DNA of 64,000 bases, from assembly GCF_018977255.1 (NCBI RefSeq), contig NW_024704742.1, forward strand, positions 74,154,001-74,218,000, given 5' to 3'. This DNA comes from Callorhinchus milii (lineage: Eukaryota). The notes below the pieces were generated by a model. That model was not told where the DNA came from. It saw nothing but the letters and a program-made list of their open reading frames with translations, and searched no databases. A program made the translations under genes and the position numbers. Positions 32,059-64,000 of the stretch are shown in pieces (the stretch's first letter is position 1; every line of letters starts with the position of its first letter).

Positions 32059-34115
32059 AGCGGGCTGCCGAACGCACTTGGCTCAAATCCGGCCTAACGT
32101 TCCACCGGCAATCTGGCTGGACCACATCAAAACCTACCGCTCTGCTCTCGCCTCGCCAAATCATCCTTCTATTCCAGGTTAATCCTGGAGGCAAAGGGCA
32201 ACCCCAGGCTACTGTTCTCCACCACCAACCGGCTCCTCCTCCCTCCCCGACACGCCTCACAGATTCTTTCCTCCGACTCCCACTGTGAGGAAATGCTGAA
32301 CTTCCTCAAGTCCAAAATCGAGGGAATCCGCTCAGCTGTCACTGCCCTCCCAACTTCCACCCCCTCCCTACCCCCACCCCACACTCTGACCACTACCGAT
32401 CTCTCTTTCCACCTTTGAACCTGTCACCCCCTCCTCTGTCATCACCACTATATCCTCCATGAATCTCACCACCTGCTCCCTGGACCCCATCCCCACCCCT
32501 CTCCTTAAATCCCAGCTCCACCTCCTTGCCCCACTACTCGCCGACATCATCAAACTCTCCCTGTCATCCAGCACTGTTCCTTCCCCCCTCAAAACAGCCA
32601 CTATCACCCCCACCTTGAAGAAACCTTCCGTTAACCTATCACAGCTATCCAGCTACTGGCCCATCTCCCACCTCCCTTCCTATCCAAGGTTCTTGAGAGA
32701 GCCGTTGACTCCCAGCTTCGCTCTCTCCTCTCCTCCCACTCCCTCCATGAACCCCTCCAATCTGGTTTCCGTGCTGCCCACAGCACAGAATCTGCTCTGG
32801 TCAAGGTCCCAAACAACATCCTGACCATGTGTGATCAGGGCTCCCTCTGCCTCCTCGTCCTCCCTGACCTCTCTGCCGCCTATGACACCGTGGACCACTC
32901 AATCCTCCTCCATTGCCTCTCCTCCCACCTCAACCTTCAAGGTTCTGTCCTTGACTGGTTCAGGTCCTACCTTTCACACCGCCTCCACTTCGTCTCTGCA
33001 AATGGCTTCTCCTCCAGCCTCTGCACCATCTCGTGCGGTGTTCCTCAGGGCTCTGTCCTCGGTTCCCTCCTCTTCACCCTCTACATGCTCCCCCCTGGTC
33101 ATCCGCAGACATGGGGTAAATTTCCACATGTATACAGATGACACCAAACTCTATCTCTCTGCCTCCATCCTCAACTCCAGGACAACTGGGGTCCTGACCG
33201 ACTGCCTGTCCAACATCAAGTCCTGGACGAGGGACAACTTTCTCCAGCTGAAAGTTAGTAAGTCCGAGGCCCTATTGATTGGCTCGCGCCAGCGCCTCCG
33301 CACCACCGGCGCGGGCAGTGTTAGCCTCCACGGCTGCACACTCAACCTCACTAAACCAGTCAGGAACTCGGGTATCTTGTTTGACCCTGAACTGTTCTTT
33401 CTCCACCACATCCGCGCCATGACCGGCACTGCCTACCACCACCTCCACAATATTGCCAGACTCCGCCACTGCCTCACCCCTCAGGCTGCCGAAACCCTCA
33501 CCCACGCATTCGTCACATCAAGGCTCGATCATGGAAACTCCCTCCTCATCGACCTTCCCAACTCTTCCCTTCACAACCTACAAATCATCCAAAACTCTGC
33601 AGCTTGTGTACTCTCACGCACCAGGCTCCGTGACCCCATCACTCCCACCTTCGCCCGACTGCACTGTCTCCCCATCCCCAAGAGAATCGAATTCAAGATC
33701 CTCATCCTCACTTTCAAGGCCATCCATGGCCTTGTCCCTCCTATCTCTCTGACCTGCTGACTTCCTACCAACCTGCCCACTCCCTCCATTCAGCGGGGTC
33801 CTGTCTGCTCCATGTTTCCCGCCTGACCCATCCTACCATCGGTGGCTGGGCTTTCAGCCTCTCTGCCCTCACACTCTGGAACTCCAACCCACAGTCCCTT
33901 CGCCTCGTTTCCTCCCTTGCCTTCTTCAAGGCCGGTCTCAAGACCCTCATCTTCGATCGTGCCTTCAGTCGTCCTCCCACCTCTCTGCCTTCCCTCACCC
34001 CTACTCCACCCCTCCCCCATGCTCAGGTCCTGCCCCCTGATTGTCCAGCACCTTGGGACATCCTCCCAACGTAAAAGGCGCTCTATAAATGTAATTTTGT
34101 TGTTGTTGTTGTTGT
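32059..34115 (+). mobile_element. L2-clade LINE, 5'-truncated ~2.05 kb (frameshifted RT domain), inserted into a minus-strand CR1 3' end (31945-32058 and 34120-34300)
   Basis: [47 protein letters not shown]; (ttg)n tail; CR1 sequence resumes after the tail. Confidence 0.92.
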
Positions 34116-37494: not shown

Positions 37495-38372
37495 AACAAC
37501 AACAAATTATATTTATATAGTGCCTTTCACATTAGGAGGAGTCCCAAGGTGCTTGACAGTTGAGGGTTAGCACTTGAGCTAGATTGACAGAAGTGGGAAG
37601 CAAGGGAGATGGGGCTTGGAAGGCATGGTTAAAGGGGAAGGTCTTGAGATGGGCATTGAAGGAAGCAAGGGAGGGGGAGAGGTGAAGAAATTCTGGGATG
37701 GAGCTCCAGAAGATGGGGGTAGAGAGGCAGAAGGCCTGACCTCCGATGGTGTGGTGGGGTATGGTTGCACAAGACTGTGGAGAGTTTTAACGATGAGGAT
37801 GAGGATGTTGAACTCTATCCCCTGGGGGATGGTGGGGGTAATAGGGTCATGGAGCCTGGTGTAGGAAAGAACACGAGCTGCAGAGTTCTGAATGATCTGT
37901 GTATCTTGTGGAGGGAAGAATCGGGAAGGCCAAAAAGCAGGGAGTTCGGATAGTTAAGCCTGGATGGGATGAAAGCTTGAATGAGGATCTCAGCAGCCGG
38001 AGGGGAGAGGCAGTGGCGGAGCCGGGCAATGTTGCAGAGGTGGGGAAAGGCAGAGTGGGTCATGGTATGGATGTGGGGTAGAAAGCACAGTTGATAGTCG
38101 AACAAGATGCCAAGGTTCCAGACTGGCTCAGTGAGGTGGAGAGCGCATCCATGGATGGTGATGCTGTCAGCGCTTGAGGTATGGAAGTGCTGACGAGAAC
38201 CAATCACAAGAGCCTCGGTCTTGTTGACGTTCAACTGAAGAAAGTTAGCTCTCATCCAGGACTTGTTGTCTGACAGACATTCTGTCAGGACAATAGTCCT
38301 GGAGTTGAGGGTGGAGGCAGAGAGATAAACTCGGGTGTCATTCACATACATGTGGAAGTTGACCCCGTGCTA
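37495..38372 (-). mobile_element. L2-clade LINE 3' fragment
   Basis: MYVNDT...NFLQLNVNKTEALVIG...HLCNIARLRHCL...SRLNYPNSLL; (caa)n tail at 37495. Confidence 0.9.
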
Positions 38373-38969: not shown

Positions 38970-39800
38970 CGCTGCACCTCGCGACCCTCACCGTGTGTGA
39001 AAGGCGTTATATAAATTCAAGTTGTGATCGCCACAATCTGCCTTCTCTGCCCAACCGAGCGATGTTCCAAAGTGCGTCAAATACACGACCGGAGACATTT
39101 CGAAATCATTTCTTCCGAGCTTATTAAAAAAAAAAACCCCAACAAATACCCGCCGAAAGCCATCATTTCCTTGTCGTTTTTATCACGGCTAATTCAGCGC
39201 GTTTTAGTCAAAGCGCACTCGATGGCGAAGGAAATCTGTGGGTGATCGGAATCGTTTTGAAAACGCAGGTCAAAGTCTTCGAGTGGGTGAACAGCAAAAA
39301 AAAAAAACAGGGTCAGGCTGTGCAATGCATTGCTGTAATGCACAGTACACTCTCACACCTCAAACAAGGCAGGTATGCAGATAAGAAAGTGACTGAGCTG
39401 AGGCATGCACACAGGGCTGGAGGGCTGACTCAGACTTGACTGTGCACATTGGCCACTGAGCTCCACCCCCTCACTCCCTACTTCTTTCTCAAGTCGTCAG
39501 GTCACGGTTTGTCGGGGGATGAGAGCGCTGCCTCGACCCGGACCGCACCAGGAAAGCTAAAGCCAGGTCTCTGCTTTTGCACTCCCGGTCAAGTTGTCCG
39601 CCTTTCCGCCCCGAAACCGTGTAAGTCCCGTGTGGGAGGGGTTCGTTCCCGCAGCAGCTGTGAACTTTTGCGGTAAGTCCCCATCACTCACTGAGACGCT
39701 CCTTTGTCACAAAGAGCATTCGGAAAGGAGCTCTCAGGCTCTCAGTGACAGCCCCACAGGGGCAGCGCAGGGCGGCACCAGCGACTGGGCGGGGGGGGGG
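38970..39800 (+). promoter_or_regulatory. CpG-enriched probable PRAG1 promoter and non-coding first exon
   Basis: Local CpG enrichment in non-repeat DNA, GC box ccgccc (~39606), AP-1 TGACTCA (39426), two GTAAGT donors (39621, 39673); about 5.5 kb upstream of the PRAG1 ATG. Confidence 0.6.
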
Positions 39801-39814
39801 GGAGTGGGGGGTCT

Positions 39815-40210
39815 GTGTGTGGGTGTGTGGGGGTCTGTGTGACTGTGTGTGTGTGTCTGTGAGTGAGTGTTTGTGTGAGTGTGTGTGTGAGTGAGTGTGT
39901 GTGTGTCTGTGAGTGTGTGTCTGTGAGTGTGTGTGTGTCTGTGAGTGTGTGTCTGTGAGTGTGTGAGTGTGTGTGTGAGTGAGTGTGTGTGTGTATGTGA
40001 GTGTGTGTGTGAGTGTGAGTGTGTGTGGTGTGTGGTGTGTGTGAGTGAGTGTGTGAGTGTGTGTGTGTATGTGAGAGTGTGTGTGAGTGTGTGTGTGTGT
40101 GTGTGTGTGAGTGTGTGTGTGAGTGTGTGTGTGAGTGTGTGAGTGAGTGAGTGTGTGTGGTGTGTGTGTGTGTGTGTGTGAGTGTGTGTGAGTGTGTGAG
40201 TGAGTGAGTG
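39815..40210. repeat. Compound (TG)n/(TGAG)n microsatellite, ~400 bp
   Basis: Directly visible; it produces the spurious His/Thr and Cys/Val ORFs. Confidence 0.97.
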
Positions 40211-41865
40211 CAGAGCAGCTCTGTGATGTGTGTGAGAGGTAATGCTGCATTATCAGGACTTTCTTTCTGTGCTGTGGGGTTCCAGACACGCGGTCCGTGT
40301 GTGTGTGTGTGCACCAGGGAGTGCCTGTGTGCAGACTACCCGGGACTGGCCGGGGCTCCCACAGCACAGTAACCCGAGAAGCTGACTTCACATCATTCCC
40401 TCAGACATTTTCAGAGTGAGCTCCTTCTGCTGTAGCCCCCACCCACAGCTCAGCTCCTGGGGCAGCCTCCCCTCCCCTCCCCTCCCCTCGCCATTGTGTA
40501 GTACTGTAAGGTACGTGTGGAGCAAAAAAAGCTCCACAGAAACCTGCAAGAAGGCAACCATGTCTGGGGTAAGGATTTCCAACCTTATTAAAGCAAGTCG
40601 TGACTTTACACTTTAATGAAAAGTTTTTTTTTTTGGGGGTGGGGGGGCTCTGGTGACAAGTTTCGAACACGTGTTACTTGATGTGTTATTTGTGGGGCTT
40701 TGCATTGAACCCCAATGACTGAGATGCTGGGGCTCAGTATAAGTTCACAGCTTGGAGCATTGTTTGTTTGCAGGTTGTGAGACGGATCTCATCTCTTCCT
40801 TCTGCAAATGACAGCCTGGGTTGACCTCTTTAGCAATTTGCCTTCAATGTTATACGTTTACATAAGGTACAAGTCCTGAAGTTCAAAGGTGTTGCTTACT
40901 CTGGCACATCATAAATACCTTCTGATTACAATGGTGTATAAATATTGCAGTGAAAGGCCACTGGCTCTGGGTTTCCTCAATCTGTCGAGCATTTATCACC
41001 GTCCAGAATTTGACAAATCGATTGCATTCAGTTTTTGACTCTGAAGCTGTTTTTTTCTGGAACTCTTAAAAACTGGCTTCAAAATTAAGATTGTATTTAA
41101 GAACTTGTCAATTTCTGGCGCTCCGTAATGTTAACATGAATGGAGTAAATGTGGAGCCAGGTGGAATTTTTCTGCACTGGTTTATTTTCTTATTCATCCC
41201 TTGAACATGACTATTGCTTTATGAACTGCGACCTCGTTTGTAATAGCATTAATAGTGTATTACCTTATTTTGAATGTTTGTATTTTACTTTTTAACAGTT
41301 TGGGAGGGTATTTTACTGAATTAGAACGGTGGGCGTGAGGTAGAATCAGCTGCAGCCTGATCCCCTCAAAGTAAGGATACAGCTCACTTTCTCCATTCAT
41401 TGCTTGAAATGCCTGTCAGTGACTTGAAGGTAGGGGTGGGTTGTGGTGGAAGGGATTAAACAGCTCAGTCACTGGGCACATTGTCTTTCAGTCGGTCAGT
41501 AACTGATTCAGGGGTCTCGGTTCAATTCAGGGTAAGTGAGGCTCTGAGACAATGAGACGCATTCTTTCATCTGAATGAATGATGTAGCTGTGCTTGGCAC
41601 AGGCATTTTGCTTTAATTTTAATTCAATCACCCGCTTGAGACAGATTTATCCGTGCACACTTGAACCATAACCAATTTGAAGGAATTCAGGAGTCACTGT
41701 TCTGCGGGATTGTATCACTATTTGTGACTTGCCATATGTCATGACTAAGCTTTTGAGGCATTTTAGGCCTGAGCCCTGTTTTCGGCGACAGCCCTGATGG
41801 GGTTGCACGCGGTCAATGGTATCGGGTTGAGATGAGCTGCTTTCATCTTCTCACAAGTCCCACAA

Positions 41866-45186: not shown

Positions 45187-45477
45187 ATGTCTCTTTGCAA
45201 TGATTTTTCTGAACACGTTTGGAAGCCTGGCTCCTGCAAGAACTGCTTCAAATCAAGAGGTTCCCACAAGCTACAGACAGCGACTGACACCGGCAAAGTA
45301 GCTACACACACCACAAATGTCTTTAAAAACAACGGTGACAGGACTCTCTTGGATGAGGAATATGCACTGGCTTCATCTCACTCCAAACCCACTATAGCAG
45401 TCAAGCCAACTCTAATGAACTCTGACGGTGCTACTGAGATGTGGGCAGACGTGAATATGAATTCAGAAGGGCAGCAG
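45187..45477 (+). CDS. PRAG1: PRAG1 (pragmin/SgK223) first coding exon; the exon starts at 45070
   Basis: MSLCNDFSEHVWKPGSCKNCF is the PEAK-family N-terminal motif; KPTIAVKPT; in-frame stop upstream of the ATG; donor CAG|gtactg; 97 codons, phase 0. Confidence 0.93.
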
Positions 45478-46794
45478 GTACTGTACATGTTGAATGTGCT
45501 TATTAATGTCAGGCCGTAAGCTGACATGGGATTTGTACAAACTGGAAGTCACTGGGCTAACAACGACCTCTCGATCTGATCACGGCCAGTGTTTTGTTTT
45601 CACTCCGTCTCTTGCCTGAAAAAACGTCCTGAAGAATATGGTCAAAGGGTCATTAAGCAAAATGCTGATCGTTGAGAATATTTTCAAAAGCAAATTATTT
45701 GGTATTGAATTCTGCAATTTCAGATGCTAATTACGCAGACAGTAAAGCATTTAAACCCCAAATAGTTCTTTCCAGCAATGGGTTTTGCAGCAAGGCTGAG
45801 AGCAAATGAGCCAAAGAGACATATAAAAGTTCTGTCAAAGAGACCCTCACTATCCCTGTAACCAAGCAGTCTAGTTCTAGTATTTGAAAGGGTTTTCACT
45901 GTACCCCTTGACCAGTTAGATCATTATAAATCAAAATGAACTATAGGAACATTGTAAAGAATGGAGCTGCATGTCTCTATTAGTACAATGGGACCACTAT
46001 CACTGTGTATGTCAGGGTCTGAACGCTGCCACTCTTCTATCAGATACTGGACTGATGAAATTGACATGGGGAGTGCTGTTCACCCACTGTTTAGTGTTCA
46101 CAGATTATTTAGATTTTTAACATTGAGCTTAATTGTTAATTGTTGGAAATGTTTTCACATTTGTTCTCCCCACTTCTGGAGTTGTCACTTCATTCTGCGG
46201 TCTCACACATAGCCACTCGCTCTCTGGTAACCCTCTCGTGTCCGAGCTCCCATTATGTGTTTGCTTCAGGGACATAATGAAGCACATGATGTGACAATCT
46301 TTCAGAAGAGTCTCAAGTTCCTTAGACATTGCTCCTCTGTTGGAATTGTCATCCCTTTCCCTTGTCTACAGTTGTGCGGTGGCAATCCTTGTCCATTCTT
46401 CGTGATCCTTCCAGTAGACCTCTTGCTTCTTTAAAGAGAAAAATTGTATCTTGTAGTGCCTTGTCAGGTTGAAACATCTAAATGCACAGAGGTAATTACT
46501 GTCAAGTGTAATGGTTGTTTGTGTAGGCAAATTGGCAACCATTTGCACACAGCAAGGTTCCATAAATATCCATGAGGTGAATAATCAAATAATCTAAAGG
46601 TTAAATTCATTATTCTTGGCACAATGTGGGTCATGGATTAGTTTGGATATGATATAGATGTGAGGGATATGCAGTGAATGAACAAACCTACAACCTTCTA
46701 TCCCAGAGGCAAAAGTGCTCGTAACTTAGCCAAACTTCACCTAGAATCCATTGTCCCTCATTGTATCATTGAAGACAATAGCCTTCAATACTTA

Positions 46795-47252: not shown

Positions 47253-48054
47253 TAATCTACAACAGAAGTACATGCCATATTACTATCCTCTTGCTAGGTA
47301 TTCTTATTCATCCTTTTATTCATCCGATTTGAGTGTGATATACATCTATACTTGCACACCAGCCAACTATTCAGATATGCAACAAAGCTAAAATGTCCCT
47401 TTACCTCCCAAATAATTAGTTAGTTGCTGATTTTGACACGAGTGGAAACACTTTACTGATATTTTTTCTCCACACGTTCCCTCCTGATGCCATCAGCTGT
47501 TGGTGGGATATGGTTCAACTGAGCCCTGGCTTGGATTCTCCATCCCAAGTGTGGGGTGCTGTAGCTATTTGTTGTAGCCCAACTGCTGTGTGCTGAGATC
47601 AGCTAACTCAGCACAGACTGAGATTTAAACCTGTGAACTGTATGATTTTGTATCTTTCTGGGTGGCACCTTGACTCAGTTGTTTTTAAAATCAGTTTTGT
47701 CGGCTTGTTAACATATTAGTCAGTGTGTCCAGTCAATCCAGAGCCTTTGTTCAGTTTTGAAATGACCTCAGACAAGGTGACAGGCACCTCCTTCCTTCCT
47801 GTCATGATCAGACAGTCCAGATTTAATGCAAAGTGACTGTCAGAAATCCCTGATTAACAGTCTGCACGAACTTGAAAATCAGTCAGTATCTCATTAGAAG
47901 CAATTTCACAACTTCTATTGCAACGAGTAAAGTTTCAAAATGTTTCATCTGTGTTTCCTTTAGAGTTGCTGTTCATTGAATTCCTAACCTGTGTTAGGCT
48001 GTTAGGCTTAGTTCACTCATAACAATAACAACCACTAACTTTTGAAACCTGCAG

Positions 48055-50201
48055 GTAACCCAGGAAATGTCATCCGAAAAATCTAAAAGTTGTCAGAATA
48101 ATAATGACATAGAGCCCGGGACAATGCAATTGGATTGTAACTCCTGCAGGTGTTTGCGAGCGGCTGTGGGGAACCACTCCTCTGATGATGCTGTACATTC
48201 GTGGTGTCCTAAAGAGAATTGTGGAGAAATATCACGACATGGGAGTGAATCTCTGTATGAGCAGAATGTGTATCACACAGAGTCATCGGGTGATGGGGAG
48301 GGGCATGGCTACATGTCGACACCAGCCAACACCGACACCTTCACAATCACTCGCGGCGTGGACAAGCAACAGCAGCAGCACAGTTTATTTCCACACCAGG
48401 AATTTAAGAGTTTAAACCTGCCATCGCCAAACAACTTGAAAAATTCACTTCGGAGCAGGAGCACTGAGGCAGAGAAACCAATGTGCAGCAGTTATGAAGA
48501 GGTATTGCAGTTCTATTCACTTGATGAGGAGACAAGCAACGTCATGAACTCCTACATGTTGATACAAAGTCCAAATAATTCTTTAAGTACTGAAGCAGCA
48601 ATACCAGACCTCGCCTTTCCTAGTGGTTCTGATCAAATCTATCCCCTGGACAAAGCTCTGAGCCTGAACAGAGATTGCAGTAAATCACAGATGGGAGCTG
48701 AACATCGGGAGATCAGGAAGTTTGAAACAACAACAAATACATTCTTTAAGTTAGGATCAAGCTACCATGGTGAAGTGAGTATACAGTGCAATGAGCAATA
48801 TCTGCAGGAACATCTGGATACATGTGACTCATCTCTACATCACCAGGCTGCATGTCCAGACAGTAGAGACGTCTTGTTCATGTCTGGATGTGGGAACCCT
48901 AAGGAACTGCTTCCATGGGAGGCGACACAGATACGTTCTTATGCCTCACAGATAAAGCAGCACTGTCATGAAGCCTCTGGGTCGGATTGTACAAACTGCA
49001 GTGAAAATAAGGAGGAAATAGCTGTTCCTGAGATCAGACCTACGGTAAGGAATAACAACGGTAATTTGTGCAATTGGTCCGTGAACTCGGTCCTGAAACC
49101 TGACAGAAACGAACCAATCTATGCAGAGAGCACAAAAAGGAAAAATAGAGCACCTGGTAACAAAAATAATGTCAGGAAAGCTCAGTGGTCAACAGTGGAG
49201 ACTCTGCAGAAAGAAACGGTGGTGGAGCACCAAGAGGATGGAAGAACAGATGTGGTGGGTACTGATGATGTCAGCAGTCAGAGACCCACTATTACTGTGG
49301 TGACATCACACACCGATGAAGACAACAGGACATTTTATCTAAGCAGCCCTGACTCTGCTGTTGCAGTGCAATGGCAATGTTTTAATCCAGGAGCGAATGC
49401 ACATCAAGATCATGGTAACCCCTCTCCATCCCTACAACACTCGCCCACTGGTTATTCAAATCAACACAGGAGCAGCCATGAATCCTGCTCAATAGAGACG
49501 GCAAACCTGCAGCATTCTTCCCGCCCTATCCCTGCAGTACCTCCTAAACAGTCAAAAGCCAGCACAGTCCTAGAACCAATCTCAACAGGAAACAGCAAAT
49601 CACAGGAGTTAAACAATCTCTCCATGTATAAGTCCTGTGACAGTGTAGGAAGCGATACAGCCAGTGAAAACCATTCAGTGTCGCAGCACTGTCCTTCTCC
49701 AACAGATATAAGCAAAGAATCACTTGGAGCTGAGCAATCAGGCAAGCTCTCAATAACTATACCCATCAGCCATCCCTATAGCAGAGTCCTCACTGAAACA
49801 GCTGAGCTTAGCTCCTCTTCACTGACAGCAGAGAGAAGAAGTAGATACTACAAAACAGCATGGGGCAAACAGTGCAAAATAGATGAAGAGGAAGAGAATG
49901 AGGAAACAAGGAACCATTCACAAGAAGGGCAACCTGTAAGTCCGATGGATTCCCATTGTGCCAAGAGAGGGGATAAAAGCTTGGAAACGGCAGCCAGTAC
50001 TTATAATGCACCAATACCACCAATAACATACAGTGGTGTTGTCCATTATGGGGAAAAGAGCCAAGCTGGAAGCTATTCTGAAGGAAATAGAAGATCTGAT
50101 GTTTCCAAGGCTACAATCTACTCTTCTTCAGAATGGACTGAGAGTAGAAACCCAGCAACCAACACAGTACCTCCACCTCCTCCCCCAAAGAAACAGAGCA
50201 G
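48055..50201 (+). CDS. PRAG1: PRAG1 large coding exon (disordered region with EPIYA)
   Basis: actaac branch point, then ctgcag|GTAACC...AGCAG|gtaacc; 2147 nt open; motifs EPIYAESTKRK (49111), YLSSPDSAV, PAVPPK, PPPPPPKK. Confidence 0.95.
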
Positions 50202-50884
50202 GTAACCTTTACTTTAAACTGTTCGAGCAGTGACGGTACTTAACTACAAGTTAGGACAAGCACCTTATCAGCTGTCATGTGTTTGAGTCCAGGGTGACGA
50301 ATGTTCTGTTGACTGGGCCCCACTGGTCTGCTGTGGTCCATTCCCAAGATCTCACAACAGATTTAGAGCTCAGCACTCTTCATAAGTGCACATGCTATCT
50401 CTTTACTGTGAAGTGTGCTGGAATTCTGCCACCTCAGCTTTGTAACTCCAGGCACAGTACACTCACAAACACTCACCTTACCATGTGCCAATACACACAG
50501 CACAGTTAGCTATTGCTGTCATTCAGTGTGTGTGTGAGAGAGAAATTTCTCCTGGTCTAATTTTATTTTTTCAGAATTTCACATCATGAAGAATTTGACA
50601 AATTGTTGAATTTATTCTTTAACATTGACAAGTTTATAAGAAATGAATTTTAAAATTAAAATTGTATTTAAAAATTTGCAAAATTCTGCACATTCTGAAA
50701 TGTTAATAAGAGTAAATCTAGACCCAACTCCTCTTTTCCCTATTGAGTTAAGAAACAGAACATACTATGATTGGACAGAAAGAGACAACTTTCTGTGTGC
50801 TAGAATTGTTCATGTAAATAGAAGCACTGCGATGTCCAGGACTACACTCTACTCTTCTGAATTGACTGCTTGTTTTACAATACA

Positions 50885-55520: not shown

Positions 55521-58009
55521 TTTCCCCTGCAATTCTGCTCCAACAAAAAATTTAAGCAAAATGGTCTCACTGGCTAAGTCTAGGCATGGTTTGGGAACAG
55601 AGGCCCTGAATTCCACCTAGTCTTTCATGTTTCCACTGCTGTCTAGATATCAGAAGATTATCTGTGATAATACAACCTTTGCAATAGGCATTGATTCAAG
55701 TGGCTGTCCTCTAATACCCACAAAATGCCTCCAGCAAGTGGTCCAACCATTCAATACTACTCACACTGAGCCTGGTTGAGATAAACAGCAATCTTCCCAC
55801 ACTCTGCATGGAGAGAGCATCTTTGTTAAGAGTTTAATGACATGATAGATGCTGGCCTAAAGCTCTTTTTGAAAAAAAACTCCAAATTAGGGAAACTATA
55901 ATAAATTACAGGGCGATGAGGTAGAAAGATCTTTCCAATTAAAACACAGAGCTCATGTTTTTTGTCCTTCAAAAGCACTAAAAATGGTAAAATAAGTCCC
56001 GGCTGTATAGTTGTATTGCTTATGTTAAAAGTCCTGTGACAGGCTCAGGGAACCTTGCAGTGATGAGAACTGGTGAATAATGCATCATGCACTCGCTTTC
56101 ATCTTGCTGCATATTTCTGTGTTCTGGGCAGAGAGTCTGAATTTAAAATTTTTCCTGCTAATAATAAGCCTTGTGTTTGATATAGCGCCTTATCGTATCA
56201 TGAAAACATCTCAAACAGCTTCGCAGGATTTTACTGTGAAGTGTAGTGACTCTTTGTAGGCAAATACTGCAGCCAATTTGCACATGACAATGTCCCACAA
56301 CTAGCTCTGAAGTGAATGACCAATTCTATTCAATACAATAAAACTTATGTTTATGTAGCACTGTTCACTTCAGGAGGACATCCCAAAAGCACAAACACAC
56401 GGATGGGCACCCAAGCTGTTGGGGGGTGGTGGGAGGGGTGGGTTGGGATCCAAGGGGGAAGGGTGAATAGTAAAAAGATGACTGAAAGCGCAACGAAAGA
56501 GGTACATTTTCAGACATGGGTTGAAAGAGGGGAGGTAGGGAGCAGAGGGATTGCAGCAGGGAGTTTCAGAGAGAGGGGCAGAATGGCTGACAAAACACCC
56601 ACAGATGTTGGGGTGGATAGGGTAGGGCCCATAAAGCAGATAGTGCTCCCTGAGTGAAGGGAGAGGCCTGGACTCTGTGGGATTGTTTGGGGATTTGGTT
56701 GGATTGGAATTGGGATTATCTGTGGAATTGTTGGCCAGGACACTGCGCTGGGAAAATTTGCCTTCTCTTTTTGAAACGTGCCTTGGAATGTTTAACATCC
56801 ATCCGAACGGGCAGTTTAATATCTCATATGAAGGATGACACCTCTGACAATGCGGTGCTATCCCAACACTTCTCTGGAGTGTCACCCTAATAATTAAAAA
56901 GATGCTACATTTAATATAGCATCTTTCATGTCAGGAGGACATCTTGAAGAGCTTCACAGGATTAACCCCCCATTTTAGCACAGTCTTTCAGTCATTCTGC
57001 CTCCACTGTCTGGAATTCCATCCTGGATAGCTCGCTCCCTTCTATCGCTCAAGGCCCATCTCAAGATTATCCTCTTTGACCATGTTTTTAGTCATCTTTC
57101 CCATCCCCTCCCCACTCCCTTTGACTCCCATTCCCACCTCAGGTAACCAGCCAGAACTTTAAGGCATCCGCCTGACATGAAAGACATAATATAATTGTGA
57201 ATTGTACAGTATTGGTGTCATGTGGACCCAACAACCAATGTTTACTTCCCATGCTAAAAGCAATGCCAGACTTCCGGATCATCAGGTCACTATTGACATG
57301 ATTTCCCCTGAGTTGAATTTAGGGAACAAAGCTAGAAGGAAGGATTGGCCTGCCTGGGACTTTTCTGAAAAGACTTTTCTGAAAACTGAGAAGGGCAGGG
57401 GAGAATGATAGAGATGTTTACATTTAGGAAGACTTAGGAGAACATTTTGAGGCAGGCAAGCTTTTCTGTTGTGTGGCAAACTAAAGCGCAAAATATTATA
57501 GCTTCAAAATAGGACAAAAACGGATAGAAAATGGAGATGTATTTAATAAAAGGTGATAGGCATGTTGAACAAATGCCTAGCACAGATGATGGAAAAGGGA
57601 TGTAAAAAGGGATTCAAAAATGAATTAAAGGATAAAAGGTTATTAGGTGATAGGATAGATGTGTCAAAGGAATCTTTGGGGAATTTGGATGGGTAGACAG
57701 GCCAATGTGTGCTGTGTGTGTTGTTGTGTGAATTACTGTTTTATGAAGAAGGCTTCCTTGACTGAAAGTCACAGGATTAAAGTTAGACAGCGCTGAGGAG
57801 ACCTGGTGGTTAGGAGGTCTGAATCTGTACAGGATGTTCCGTACTGTGGGTTGCGAAGTGGGAAGTAGCACAGTTCTGAGATTTATGACTCAGTTAAGCA
57901 TACTTTCTTTGTTCTTAACTCTTTGAAAGATAATGATTATAATAACACAAAGGTAAAACTGTGCTTGTTTTTATTTACTAATAAATGTATTTTTCCTTCC
58001 TGTGCTTAG

Positions 58010-58179
58010 AGAACGGTCGATGATAAAGATGAGCCATAGCACTTCTGAGGGAGAAAAGCCAAGCTGTGGCTCTGTGGAAAATCTAGTGGGAATTTCCGAA
58101 GGAATGAATGGTAGATTCCCTGCAGTCTCCACTGAGAGTCTGGGCTCTGATTCTGACACAAGGACCTTTCATGACAGGG
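58010..58179 (+). CDS. PRAG1: PRAG1 coding exon (ERSMIKMSHSTSEGEK...STESLGSDSDTRTFHDR)
   Basis: gcttag|AGAACG...CAGGG|gtaagt; 170 nt; phase 2 in and phase 1 out fit both neighbours; resembles the pragmin STDSLASDS segment. Confidence 0.9.
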
Positions 58180-58257
58180 GTAAGTAAATCTCTCAGCCCA
58201 AGGTATATTTTCCTGTGTTCTAAAATGTTGTGTTTGAAGTATATGTGGAGTCCTGTA

Positions 58258-60130
58258 CAACAACAACAACAACAAGAGTCCATTTATAGAGCGCCTTTCA
58301 GGTCGGGAGGACGTCCCAAGGCGCTGTACAGTTGGGTCGGGACCCGAGCAGGGGGGAAATGGTCAGGGTGAGGGGAGGGAAGGGAGGGAGCGAGGAGGGG
58401 GAAATGGTCAGGGTGAGGGGAGGGAAGGGAGGAAGCGAGGAGGGGGAAGAGAGTCAAGAAGGGAGCTGAAGGCTCGGTCAAAGAGAAAGGTTTTGAGACC
58501 GGCCTTGAAGGAGGAAAGGGAGGAAGCGGCGAAGGCACTGGGGGATAGAGTTCCAGAGCCTCGGGGCTGAGAGGCTGAAGGCCCGACCACCGATGGTAGG
58601 GCGGTTGGGGCGGGGGACGTGGAGCAGACCGGAGCCAGAGGAACGGAGGGTACGGGCAGGTAGGTAGGGGGATAGTAGGTTGGAGAGGTAGGAGGGAGCA
58701 AGGCCGTGAATGGCCTTGTAGGTGAGGATGAGGATCTTGAATTCGATCCTCTGGGGGATGGGGAGCCAGTGGAGGCGAGCGAGGGTGGGAGTGATGTGGT
58801 CCCGAAGCCTGGTGCGGGACAGTACACGAGCTGCAGAGTTCTGAATGACCTGCAGTGTGGAGGGAGGTGCCGGGAAGGCCGGCGAGGAGAGAGTTCCCAT
58901 AGTCCAGCCTTGAGGTGATAAAGGCGTGGACCAGAGTTTCAGCCGCGTGAGGGGTGAGGTAGTGCCGTAGTCTGGCGATGTTCCGGAGGTGATGGAAGGC
59001 GGTGCCAGTTGTGGTGCGGATATGAGGGAGAAAGGACAGCTCAGGGTCGAACAGAACCCCGAGGTTCCTGATGGCTTTGAGAGGTGGAGAGTGCAGCCTT
59101 GGATGCTGATGCTGTCAGCGCCTGAGGTGCGGAGGCGCTGACGTGAGCCAATCAGGAGGGCCTCAGTTTTTCGCACGTTGAGCTGAAGAAAGTTGTCTCT
59201 CGTCCAGGACTCGATGTCGGACAGGCAGCTGTCAGGACATCGGTGGTCGTGGAGTTGAGGGTAGAGGAGGAAAGGTAGAGTTGGGTGTCATCCGCATACA
59301 TGTGGAAGTTAACCCCATGTCTGCGGATGATGTCACCACAGGGGGAGCATATAGAGGGTGAAGAGGAGGGGACCGAGGACAGAGCCCTGAGGGACACCGC
59401 ACGAGACAGTGCGGGGGCTGGAGGAAAAGCCGTTTGTGGAAACAAAATGAAGACGGTGGGAGAGGTACGACCTAAACCACTCAAGGACAGGGCCTTGAAG
59501 GTTGAGGTGGGAGGACAGGCGGTGGAGTAGGATAGCGTGGTCGACCGTATCGAATGCTGCCGATAGGTCGAGGAGGACAAGGAGGCAGAGGGAGCCCTGG
59601 TCACAGATGGTCAGGATGTCATTGGTGACCTTGACCAGGGCAGTTTCTGTGCTGTGGGCAGCACGGAAACCCGACTGAAGGGGTTCGAATAGTGAATGGG
59701 TGGAGAGGAAAGAGCGCAGCTGGGAGGCGACAACTCTTTCGAGGACTTTGGACAGGAAGGAATGGGAACAGAGTCAGAGGAGAGGGACAGGTTGATGATG
59801 TCTGTGATATGTGGGGCAAGGAGGTGGAGCTGAGAGATGAGGAGTGGAGTGGGGATGGGGTCAAGGGAGCAGGTGGTGGGTTTCAGGGATAGGATGAGTT
59901 TGGTGACAGAGGGTGGGGAAACGGGTACGAACGTGTGTAGGGGAGGATGGGTAGGAGTCGGAGTGTGGGAGGGAGGGGGTGGGGGTTGGGTGGAGGTTGG
60001 AGGGGAGGTGACCGTGGAGCGGATTCCCTTGATTTTGGATTCAAGGAAATCCAGCATCTCCTCACAGTGAAGGTTGGAGGAGATGACCTGCGCGGGGGGG
60101 CGGGGGGAACGGAGGAGTCGGGATGTGGTA
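58258..60130 (-). mobile_element. Young L2-clade LINE, 5'-truncated ~1.9 kb, with a 45-bp tandem duplication in its 3'UTR
   Basis: CpG-rich; TTCSLDPIPT, HMYADDTQLY, RLHWLPIPQRIEFKILILTYKA; (caa)n tail at 58258; duplication 58352-58396/58397-58441. Confidence 0.93.
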
Positions 60131-60355
60131 GACCAGTGGTTGGAGCACTCACCTCACAAGTGAGAGACCTGGGTTCAATTCCCGTTAGGGCGAAACTTTG
60201 GGCAAGTTTCCTTACTCCACGCGCCTCTGTTTACCTAGCAGTAAGTAGGCATCCGGTTGTTTGGCGGATCGCTTTTCCGGGGGTAACACTTCTTTCAAAA
60301 CAAACAAAAAATTGTTCACTCAATCCACAACTGTTTGTGGGAGATTGCTGTGCGC

Positions 60356-60668
60356 AGTCCTGTCGCTCAGTAGTTAGAGCACTCGCTTTGCAAGCGAGAG
60401 ACCTGAGTTCAATTCCAGGCAGGGCGAAACCTTGGGCAAGTTTCCTTACTCTACACGCCTAATAATAATCCCTCCAAAACCAAAAACAATAATAAATTGG
60501 TCATTTTCAATCTACGACTGTTTGTGGGACATTGCTGTGCGCAATTGGCTGCCGCGTTTGCCCACAAATATACAGTCAATTCACTTTACAGTCTATTCTG
60601 TGAAGCGCTTTGGGACGTCTAGAAGATGTGAAAAGAGCTGTATCAAATGCAAGGATTATTATTATTTA
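60356..60668 (+). mobile_element. SINE family A, short form, nested in an older long-form SINE
   Basis: Inserted between tgtgcgc and aattgg of the host SINE. Confidence 0.88.
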
Positions 60669-60771
60669 TTAATTGGTTGCCGTGTTTCGACTACAAAGTA
60701 TACAGTCAATTAATTTTACAATATATTCTGTGAAGTGCTTTGAGACGTCTTGAAGACATGATAAGGTGCTA

Positions 60772-61260
60772 CAGCAACAACAACAACTTTGATTTATATA
60801 GTGTCCTCCACACTGGACGGCATCTCGGAGCGCTTTACAGTAACGGATCCCGGGGCCAAGCCAGGGGGAGGGGGAGGAAGGTGACCAAAGGAAGAAAAGT
60901 CTTCAGCAGAGATCTGAAAATGGGAGGGAACGAGACGAAGGGAGTGAGGAGGCAGTTCCAGATCCTCGGGGCATAGTGGCTGAAGGTACAGCCGCCGAGG
61001 GTGGAGTGGAGGACTCGGGGGACAAGGAGGAGGCCAGACCCGGAGGAACGAAGGCAACGGGTACAGTGCTGAGGAGAGAGGAGGTCAGAGAGGTAGGGGG
61101 GGTGCAGAGGAGTGGAGGGACTTGAATACGAGGGTGAGGATCTTGAAATCGATCCTCTCTGGGATAGGGAACCAGTGCAGTCTGGTGAGGATTGTGGTGA
61201 TCGGGGAGTGGAGTTTCGTGCGGGTGAGAATGCGGGCGGCAGAGTTCTGAATGAGTTGGA
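60772..61260 (-). mobile_element. L2-clade LINE 3' fragment nested in a SINE tail
   Basis: (caa)n tail at 60772; the host SINE resumes with tatatcaaatgcaaggattatt at 61261. Confidence 0.88.
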
Positions 61261-61767
61261 TATATCAAATGCAAGGATTATTATTATATTTCTTCCATAG
61301 AACCAGCCAGGAGAAATAATCTTCAGTGGAATCGTTTATGATTATTTGTCATTTTTTCCATTTTTTTTCTATTTGAGTGAACATCCAATGAGCTGTAATG
61401 TTCTTTCTGTTCCTGTATATTTCTACATTCTGAAATTTATGATAATCCTCACACAGGCAAGAATCTTAACTCGATTACTGACCATGTACGAATACAGTAA
61501 TCTTATAATAAAAATCCTTGCATTTGCCTCAACATGTCATTGAAACATTTCAAAATGCCACACATGATTTACTGTAAAGTGTAGTGATTTTTAGATTGTT
61601 AAACTGATTTTTTAGGTGAATCTGGCAGTCAATCTGCACACAACAATGTTCCACAAATAGCCATGATTTTCACATCAATGCTCTCTGCATCCTGGTGCTA
61701 TCATTGATCTATTGGAATGTGCCTTTAACTGTGCAGTCCAGGTTTACCCTTAAACCTCATCCTTGCC

Positions 61768-62188
61768 CAGCTCCACTGGCTCCCCATCCCCCAGAGGATA
61801 GAGTTCAAAGTCCTCCTCCACGCCTTCAAGACCCTCCACGGCCTTGCTCCTTCCTACGTCCTGCTAACCCCATATCTGTTCCCTCTGCTCACCATGTCCC
61901 CTGCTTGGTCCACCCCACCCTTGGGGTCGGGCTTTCAGCCTTTCGTCCCCCACACTTGGAACTTCATCCCACAGTCCCTTTGCCTTGCACCCTCTCTTGC
62001 CTCCTACAAAGCATGTCTTAAGACCCTCCTCTTCGACCGCGCATTTGGCCAACCTTCTACCCCAACCTTCCCTGCCCTCCACCCCCCCTCGATTTGAATC
62101 CATGCTCAGGTCCAAATCTCTGACAGTCCAGCGCCTCGGGACGTCCTCCCAACATGAAAGGCGCTATACAAATGTAATTTGTTGTTGT
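61768..62188 (+). mobile_element. L2-clade LINE 3' fragment
   Basis: ctccactggctccccatcccccagaggatagagttcaaa...aaaggcgctatacaaatgtaatttgttgttgtt. Confidence 0.87.
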
Positions 62189-62535
62189 TACCCCAAGCAC
62201 ATGACAAACAGGATTGCTATTTGGCTGTGGCACAGTGAATGGGACACGTTTACTCAGTAATGAATGGAGTGACTGCATTATCTAGCAGCCAGCCACTGAC
62301 CTCTTTCTTTTGGCTGAGTTTATGGGTTTGTTTGGAGCGTTAAACCGAGGCTCGTCTGTCTGTTCAGGTGGATGTTAAAGACCCCATGGCACTATTCAAA
62401 GGGAGAAGGGAGTTTCAGAACATTCAGGAAGATTCAACCTGCACTGAACATTCTTAGGATTAGACAGCTTCAGGCTCACACTTGGTTGGTCTAAAGAGTC
62501 TGGTCCTATTAAACTTAGGAAGCAGCTCTGGGGTG

Positions 62536-63166
62536 GAGAATACGTGCTGCCTGTCTGAAGGGATGGAGGGAGAACACAAATGGCTCTCATCTGAGCTGCC
62601 CCCTCACGTCCATGCCGCCAAATGTGATCTGGCAGAAGTAGGTGATATAGCACAATAATTCTTCTCTCATTAATAAGAAAGCCATGACTGAGGAATTTAG
62701 ACAAGAGGTGAACCCCAAGCTCCTTCGAGACCTGTCAGTAGTTTTCATGGCTACTACATTCACACCTTGCCCACAGTGCTGCAGCACGTGCTTCCTGAAT
62801 TGTTGCTAAATTATCTCCTCTTTTGATCCTTGCAGGTCAAGCAGCCGAGATTGTGATCTGTGTAAATGGTTCTCACAGCTGGAGAGATGGTCACCCTGTC
62901 TCTGCCAAGTCAATGGATGATGCACTTCCCAGCAGGGGCCAGCCTCCGCCGCTTCCCCTAAAGAAAGTCGGAAATAGAACAACCTCCGCCCCCGACTGCT
63001 CATCTTGGAGGGACTTATCACCGAGGAGAACCAATACGTCTTCCAGCAGCAGCTACCTGAATGTCAGTGTTTCTGATGGTGTCCTCCATGGACATGAGGG
63101 GGGCAGCTCAGATGAGTGCCATTTGTGTTCTCCCTCCAGCCCTTCAGACAGGCAGCATGTATTCTC
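62536..63166. repeat. Intron-exon inverted repeat (62536-62614 / 63087-63166)
   Basis: Manual alignment: 75 of 80 positions identical (4 substitutions, 1 indel). Confidence 0.95.
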
Positions 63167-63581
63167 TTCCTGTGAGTCGCTGGAGAAGTGTGTTCCTGGC
63201 TACATGCACAAAGCTCACAGTTCAGATGACAACTCCAACAGGAATGATCAAAGCCTTCGGTCTGTTTCTTCCAATCAGATCAGCTTAGCTAATCAGAGCT
63301 CCTCAGTCTCGAATCTGCAGCTGCACAGACTCCTCAGTAACATGGACAGTAAGGAAGGGATGCACGCCAAGCTGGGCAGCCTGTACGCAGAGTCCCTCCG
63401 GCGACTGGCAGTCAAGTGTGAAGATTTCTTTATGCGAGGGCAGAAAGCACAACTGCACTTCAATGAAAACAACTGGTCAGATTTCAAGCTGATATGTAAT
63501 CAGCCTTGCTGTGATGCTGGTGATGCTATTTACTATTCAGCAGCCTTTGCCAGGGACCCAGACAACCAATATGCAGTAAAG
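62836..63581 (+). CDS. PRAG1: PRAG1 coding exon: PxxPxK and 14-3-3 motifs, SHED N-terminal helix and start of the pseudokinase domain (...NQYAVK); final exon is beyond the window
   Basis: ttgcag|GTCAAG...GTAAAG|gtatgt; 746 nt; PPPLPLKK, RTTSAP, LYAESLRRLAVKCEDFFM, FNENNWSDF, PCCDAGDAIYY, YAVK. Confidence 0.95.
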
Positions 63582-64000
63582 GTATGTTTATCAGAGTCTA
63601 ATCTGCAGTATTTCTGAATGGATTTCTTAATAAGAAATGTGTAATTATCGAATCTCTAAAACTTTGAATCTATCCTTCAGCACATTTCTAGGTTTTAGAT
63701 ATTCAAAAGTGGCATATTTCTTATTTTATAATAATAATAATCTTTGCATTTGATATAGTGCCTTATCACGTCGTTGCGACGTCTCAAAGCGCTTCACAGA
63801 ACATATTGTAAATTCTGAGATTTGTTAATTTGTTACTTCAAATTAGATCTCATCATTGACATTGCTAATGAGTTAATTAGAGTAAATTCCATGCAATTAA
63901 TCTACAGCGCTTGGGCAAAGACTCAAACGGGACAAATATACACTCAATAAAGAAACGATTGAAGTGGGAGGGCAATTTGTTTATCCGTTATCTGGGATCT

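Follow-up and report, generated by a model that had tools for sequence, protein, structure and literature searches.

A lineage-restricted inverted copy of PRAG1 coding sequence in an intron of the elephant shark gene

Introduction

In the elephant shark, Callorhinchus milii, a segment of about 80 nucleotides of a protein-coding exon is present a second time, in reverse complement, in the intron that precedes it. Both copies lie in the window (the whole 64,000-nucleotide stretch of DNA that was analysed; coordinates are window positions on the forward strand unless stated otherwise), and the question raised by the locus is whether the intronic copy does something for the gene or is a by-product of mutation. 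A first-pass annotation of the sequence had proposed that the two arms form a duplex in the pre-mRNA that serves as an editing-complementary sequence (ECS) for ADAR or as a switch of splicing, and had named a neutral recent templated insertion as the alternative. That alternative fits best. What the locus holds is a genuine inverted micro-duplication of coding sequence, restricted to one lineage, and the intron arm is probably the product of a template-switch-type event on that lineage, with no selected function. Nothing indicates a selected role of the duplex in recoding or splicing, and as far as consensus contigs can test it, the functional interpretation finds no support.

Gene and exon structure

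The gene is, as judged from its protein matches, PRAG1/SgK223 of C. milii. The translation of the exon is 100% identical, over 100% of its length, to a 1484-aa protein named 'inactive tyrosine-protein kinase PRAG1-like [Callorhinchus milii]', and its last 100 residues match the start of the SHED/pseudokinase region of human SgK223/PRAG1 (PDB 5ve6, E 1.2e-38), with PEAK1 (PDB 6bhc, E 8.5e-27) in second place. A Pfam search with the exon's protein returned no family, so the identity was taken from the PDB chains and the named orthologues. The PRAG1-like protein aligns to the genome in five coding pieces, four of them at approximately 45187-45486, 48031-50208, 58008-58187 and 62835-63596 and the fifth beyond the window. 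The large coding exon 2 (48031-50208, limits approximate) encodes residues ~90-815, coding exon 3 (58010-58179, junctions read) encodes residues ~813-870 and coding exon 4 (62836-63581, 746 nt) encodes residues ~870-1118. The intron between coding exons 3 and 4 (58180-62835, 4656 nt) holds the intron arm.

Two paralogues of the pseudokinase region (residues 1117 to ~1480) are found at C22:3374220-3397521 (57% identity) and C21:6568140-6571851 (50% identity) and are presumably the other PEAK-family genes. Long open frames in the PRAG1 introns and upstream of the gene, at 58284-60153 (minus strand), 32390-34074 and 37579-38369, look by eye like reverse-transcriptase (LINE) remnants. Also upstream of PRAG1 is a long AC/GT-rich simple repeat (39684-40400) that gives His-Thr runs in all three minus-strand frames.

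The exon arm (63087-63166) encodes HGHEGGSSDECHLCSPSSPSDRQHVFS, which belongs to the linker before the SHED helices. In 16 other vertebrate PRAG1 proteins the counterpart of this segment is a block of moderate conservation, PSSP...FSSxESLEKC; compared with these proteins, the elephant-shark protein has five extra residues in the arm segment. The extra residues are EGGSS (63099-63113), and the G-run there is the site of the one-base difference between the two arms. In other vertebrates the residue opposite the histidine encoded at 63093-63095 is Y, Q, T, D, R, H, L or P (arginine in three sauropsid proteins). Since eight different residues align there, the position is taken to be unconstrained.

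The inverted repeat and its predicted duplex

Gapped local alignment confirmed the pairing given in the first-pass annotation. The reverse complement of the exon arm matches the intron arm (62536-62614, 79 nt) with four substitutions and one indel, a G missing from the intron copy. The aligned blocks are exon 63087-63097 against intron 62614-62604 and exon 63099-63166 against intron 62603-62536, and G63098 is the single unpaired (bulged) base between the arms. A repeat search returned the ungapped inverted pair 62521-62603/63099-63181, which is 83 nt long and 88% complementary. When the arms are read as RNA, 75 of the 79 paired positions of the core are Watson-Crick pairs, one is a G:U pair (U63158:G62544) and three are mismatches (A63094:C62607, U63117:U62585 and G63139:A62563). 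The adenosine to which the first-pass annotation had drawn attention, A63094, occupies the second position of a CAT (His) codon in the open frame starting at 62838, and it does face an intronic C, at 62607, where a perfect copy would have T. The loop is also as described: its 472 nt (62615-63086) run from the last part of the intron through the acceptor AG (62834-62835) and take in 251 nt at the start of the 746-nt exon, the intron arm ending 221 nt upstream of the acceptor and the exon arm starting 251 nt downstream of it.

The weaker pairing that had been noted over a further 15 nt or so (intron 62521-62535, exon 63167-63181) stands as pairing, with eight Watson-Crick pairs, three G:U pairs and four mismatches, but as DNA similarity it is at chance level, not above shuffled controls. 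The flanks of the intron arm (62417-62535 and 62615-62700), compared in both orientations with 62701-63600, likewise gave no similarity above shuffles (p 0.14-0.95); the copy has sharp boundaries.

In the MFE fold of a 701-nt stretch the arms are paired, with a free energy of -308.5 kcal/mol versus -228.65 +/- 8.51 for shuffled sequences (z -9.38; none of 20 shuffles folded equally well), and the two arms folded by themselves reach -175.3 kcal/mol. A near-perfect intron/exon duplex of about 80 bp is thus predicted for the pre-mRNA and would supply the physical precondition for editing. The window holds eight short-range inverted pairs of 45 nt or more; the PRAG1 pair is the longest and the most alike, and on a gene map from the protein-to-genome match none of the other seven touches an exon. 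A weaker hairpin occurs in the next intron (63629-63668/63686-63725), with 40-nt arms that are 78% complementary and a 17-nt loop, directly before a high-copy repeat.

The first-pass annotation had described the arm as a copy of unique coding DNA and not a transposon, which was borne out. With 62510-62630 as the query, the 991-Mb genome yielded that stretch itself and the exon arm and nothing else (two of two candidates). In a six-frame search with the whole protein, the only match besides the gene's own exons and the two paralogues was the antisense intron arm, which aligned with residues 956-987 at 75% identity. Foldback or MITE-type elements share with the PRAG1 pair the arrangement of two inverted arms a few hundred bases apart, but they have many copies, terminal inverted repeats and a target-site duplication. 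A foldback/MITE transposon was ruled out, as the genome has only two copies of the arm and the interior between them consists of the acceptor and conserved exon.

Comparison with two related organisms

Two related organisms, B (run X7) and C (run X11), were each represented at the locus by one long DNA contig. Both contigs align through the exon arm (63087-63166) without gaps, and no contig of either run aligns to 62471-62641 at 80% likeness or more. The check for the arm in related species that had been suggested alongside the functional reading therefore did not find it in either organism, an absence that applies to contigs at 80% likeness. The X7 contig (record 24) spans the site: it aligns at 62300-62428 and 62771-63706, with 222 letters of its own between these pieces versus 342 in the window, a deficit of 120. 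The X11 contig (record 1) aligns from 62647 onward only, despite having 543 more letters on that side.

X7 and X11 have in common every one of the 36 differences listed from 62808 to 63578; 32 of these lie in the exon, which is 4.3% of its 746 nt. Because they share all listed differences, the two relatives count as one lineage for polarity. A gain in the elephant shark and a loss in the common ancestor of the relatives are consequently equally parsimonious for presence and absence of the arm. A search for an outgroup among shorter chondrichthyan fragments over the linker (residues 30-150, near lengths) gave no matches among 24 candidates, and none of the 118 longer proteins returned came from another cartilaginous fish.

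Within the exon arm, the listed differences of the relatives from the window are 63101 (G>C) and 63122 (T>C) only, both of which are synonymous, and at the corresponding positions the intron arm has the window's letters. No shared difference of X7 and X11 is among those listed at 63094, 63117, 63139 or 63158. On the differences listed, which may miss one confined to a single relative, the relatives thus agree with the exon at the four sites where the arms differ by substitution, so that by parsimony it was the intron copy that underwent the four substitutions and the indel. The gain or loss of the copy was polarized by this parsimony of substitutions. Just downstream, 63123-63257 shows no listed difference from the relatives in 135 nt, whereas the preceding 261 nt show 21; this difference-free stretch includes the FSSCESLEKC block, which is conserved across vertebrates.

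Direction and age of the copy

On this placement, the intron copy has decayed by 4 substitutions in 79 positions, or 5%. The flanking introns differ by roughly 12-14% between the lineages, or 6-7% per lineage, in a rough count for which the other letters of the long pieces (54 in X7, 75 in X11) were reduced by the 32 that fall in the exon. The decay of the copy would therefore be close to a rough neutral estimate for a single lineage since about the time of the split. On these sequence comparisons the copy shows no sign of constraint, with the caveat that four events give little power.

These observations suggest the following history, in which a single small rearrangement would have copied about 80 nt of PRAG1 coding exon 4, in reverse complement, into the intron about 500 nt upstream. 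The exon segment is the ancestral source, as it is present in both relatives and has its counterpart in the 16 other vertebrate proteins. The copy would have arisen on the elephant-shark lineage, probably after its split from the two sampled relatives, and would then have drifted at an approximately neutral rate, in the course of which a T>C change at 62607 happened to put a C opposite A63094. The most likely cause would be a DNA polymerase that switched template over a short range while replicating DNA or repairing a break. An 80-bp duplex in the pre-mRNA is possible in principle on this history, and ADAR may touch it incidentally before the intron is removed.

Several features expected of a template switch are seen at the locus: the arm is a reverse-complement copy of a nearby stretch, the source is retained, the source is present and the copy not found in the sister lineage, and there is no dispersed repeat family. 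In the accessible text of two papers, template switching is put forward as a route by which one event yields a copy in reverse complement or a perfect hairpin (Loytynoja & Goldman 2017, PMC5453318; Monttinen & Loytynoja 2022, PMC8794818). The short-range mutations treated there likewise copy a nearby stretch once in reverse complement, leave the source intact and produce a near-perfect stem. The PRAG1 copy differs in scale, being about 80 nt long and about 500 nt from its source, and long-range switches are something that the four-point model paper, in its accessible text, does not try to cover. If the arm is neutral, it is one more example of short inverted duplications seeding long RNA stems inside genes, and it carries the caution that an A:C mismatch in an exon/intron duplex is by itself no sign of evolved editing.

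The substitutions bear on a second history. Two CpGs of the intron arm, 62607-62608 and 62543-62544, correspond to CpA and TpG in the exon and, it appears, in the relatives. The first-pass annotation had explained these two differences by ordinary deamination, an argument that does not hold on the simplest history: there the intron copy gained two CpGs, the relatives sharing the exon's CpA and TpG. Each of the two transitions in the copy would then create a CpG, for which the chance is about 5% if transitions are random (a rough estimate). This is unusual and somewhat unexpected, and would be more natural if it was the exon that lost two CpGs, which in turn would imply an older duplication or parallel decay.

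It is accordingly conceivable, though unlikely, that the duplication predates the split and was deleted in the relatives. The arm would then be a fossil of an exon with CGT (Arg) at 63093-63095 and CAC at 63156-63158, and the exon would later have lost both CpGs by deamination. Both transition differences, CpG in the arm versus CpA or TpG in the exon, do have the common direction of mutation; the relatives are a single lineage, for which a loss costs no more than a gain; and arginine is the residue found at the aligned position in the three sauropsid proteins. If the arm is such a fossil, editing would restore the ancestral arginine. However, one more event is needed, a deletion of about 120 nt in the relatives, and two intronic CpGs must outlast a per-lineage divergence estimated here at about 6-7%. 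The arm also has the elephant shark's letters at 63101 and 63122, which is neutral between the histories only if both changes occurred in the relatives' lineage.

RNA evidence and editing

No run containing the stretch is registered as RNA; two, X5 and X6, are labelled 'RNA?' and were treated as RNA because their contigs are spliced. They contain 0.69 of the sampled words, the exon share of the query being about 68% by our own count. Each run contributed one long contig, of 4715 nt at depth 59.5 in X5 and of 4779 nt at depth 16.1 in X6. Each contig covers 62835-63587 with one other letter and no gaps. At the upstream end, the match at 62835 is the last G of exon 3 and not a base of exon 4. At the downstream end, the next exon starts with GTCTGT versus GTATGT in the intron, and the alignment overruns the junction by six bases with a single mismatch at 63584. 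Since the sole other letter is explained by this overrun, the X5 and X6 contigs match the genome base for base over the whole 746-nt exon.

The exon arm has 16 adenosines, and in two of two RNA runs not one of them reads as G in the consensus mRNA contig. Contigs drop minority variants, and editing in fewer than about half of the transcripts is invisible in them. No A>G place was found in X5 anywhere on 1701 nt. X6 has one A>G place somewhere on the same length, outside the places listed, which was not taken as editing because the single other letter of the exon contig is accounted for at 63584. The X5 and X6 contigs are without cover of the intron at 62471-62812, and they say nothing on pre-mRNA or on editing of the intron arm.

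ADAR could plausibly act on a duplex of 80 bp. Inverted repeat pairs, for example inverted Alus, are promiscuous ADAR substrates, and like them the PRAG1 arms would form a long, near-perfect intramolecular duplex in the pre-mRNA; the inverted Alus, in contrast, are transposons of about 300 bp, and the PRAG1 duplex is 80 bp with one arm of unique coding sequence. A further scenario is that the locus is a newly born ADAR substrate. The template-switch duplex would undergo editing in nuclear pre-mRNA too rarely to show in the contig consensus, and the later T>C change at 62607 would bias editing to A63094 (His>Arg). This is improbable. If such low-level, site-biased editing were true, the locus would document, in nature and with a date, how one mutational step gives rise to an editing-complementary sequence, with a sister lineage lacking the arm as a built-in control. 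A literature search found no ECS born by inverted duplication.

A stronger reading, put forward as a candidate in the first-pass annotation, is that the arm is a working ECS, with ADAR deaminating A63094 (His>Arg) and perhaps other adenosines and so diversifying the PRAG1 linker. One part of the case stood: a long duplex is predicted, with an A:C mismatch at a second codon position, and 12 of the 16 exon-arm adenosines would recode if edited. A:C mismatches favour ADAR editing. The genome also has matches over the cut-off to the A_deamin domain (PF02137) on C1, C2, C6, C14 and C893, that is, at least five loci, although PF02137 also covers ADAT and ADAD proteins. The other part did not stand, and this reading is now very unlikely. 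The consensus contigs of both RNA runs, which would show editing of more than about half of the transcripts, are unedited at all 16 adenosines, X5 being free of A>G on its entire 1701 nt, and the arm was not found in the two related organisms. Moreover, the helix has the wrong character, with 75 of 79 pairs Watson-Crick and only three mismatches, one wobble and one bulged G in 80 bp. A long near-perfect helix is a promiscuous ADAR substrate, and site-selective sites lie in helices interrupted by bulges and loops. The histidine at 63093-63095 is unconstrained in a poorly conserved linker, and a literature search found no link of PRAG1/SgK223 to RNA editing. In a literature search on A-to-I editing sites of C. 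milii, the papers found dealt with AMPA receptors.

The comparison with GRIA2, cited in the first-pass annotation, points the same way. At the GRIA2 R/G site an intron sequence likewise pairs with a coding exon and an adenosine faces a C. The GRIA2 ECS is conserved, short and interrupted and its editing is seen in mRNA, whereas the PRAG1 arm is missing in relatives, its helix is long and near-perfect and no editing is seen in the consensus mRNA. The accessible text of one paper describes the GRIA2 ECS as a pre-mRNA structure that spans the splice site and is highly conserved (PMC3553983).

Splicing and assembly

Inverted repeats around splice sites can change splicing, and the loop of the PRAG1 duplex contains the acceptor. 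The duplex might therefore loop out the branch point and acceptor and so tune how often the 746-nt exon is included, as the first-pass annotation had suggested, or whether a cryptic site is chosen. Like a working ECS, such a role has very little probability. Exon 4 is included in both mRNA contigs, spliced at both ends and joined at the annotated acceptor and donor, although contigs cannot show rare isoforms. The exon-skipped form would not be a useful isoform since skipping 746 nt, which is not a multiple of three, shifts the frame, and the arm is absent from the relatives at 80% likeness.

Library artefacts can produce inverted duplications, but it is extremely improbable that the arm is an assembly artefact such as a chimeric fold-back read, as the arms differ at five places and sit in unique flanks, and the DNA runs X1-X4 of organism A (four samples from one study) contain 0.97-0.99 of 118 sampled 31-mers of 62500-63600, arm and junctions included.

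Exon 4 is flanked by extremely high-copy repeats at 62357-62416 and 63725-63838, which were observed in all four runs with contigs (X5, X6, X7 and X11) and in all three organisms. Their summed contig depth ranges from ~6x10^4 to ~8x10^6, and contigs have loose ends at 62416, 63728 and 63812. SINE-like elements common to the three species are the probable explanation.
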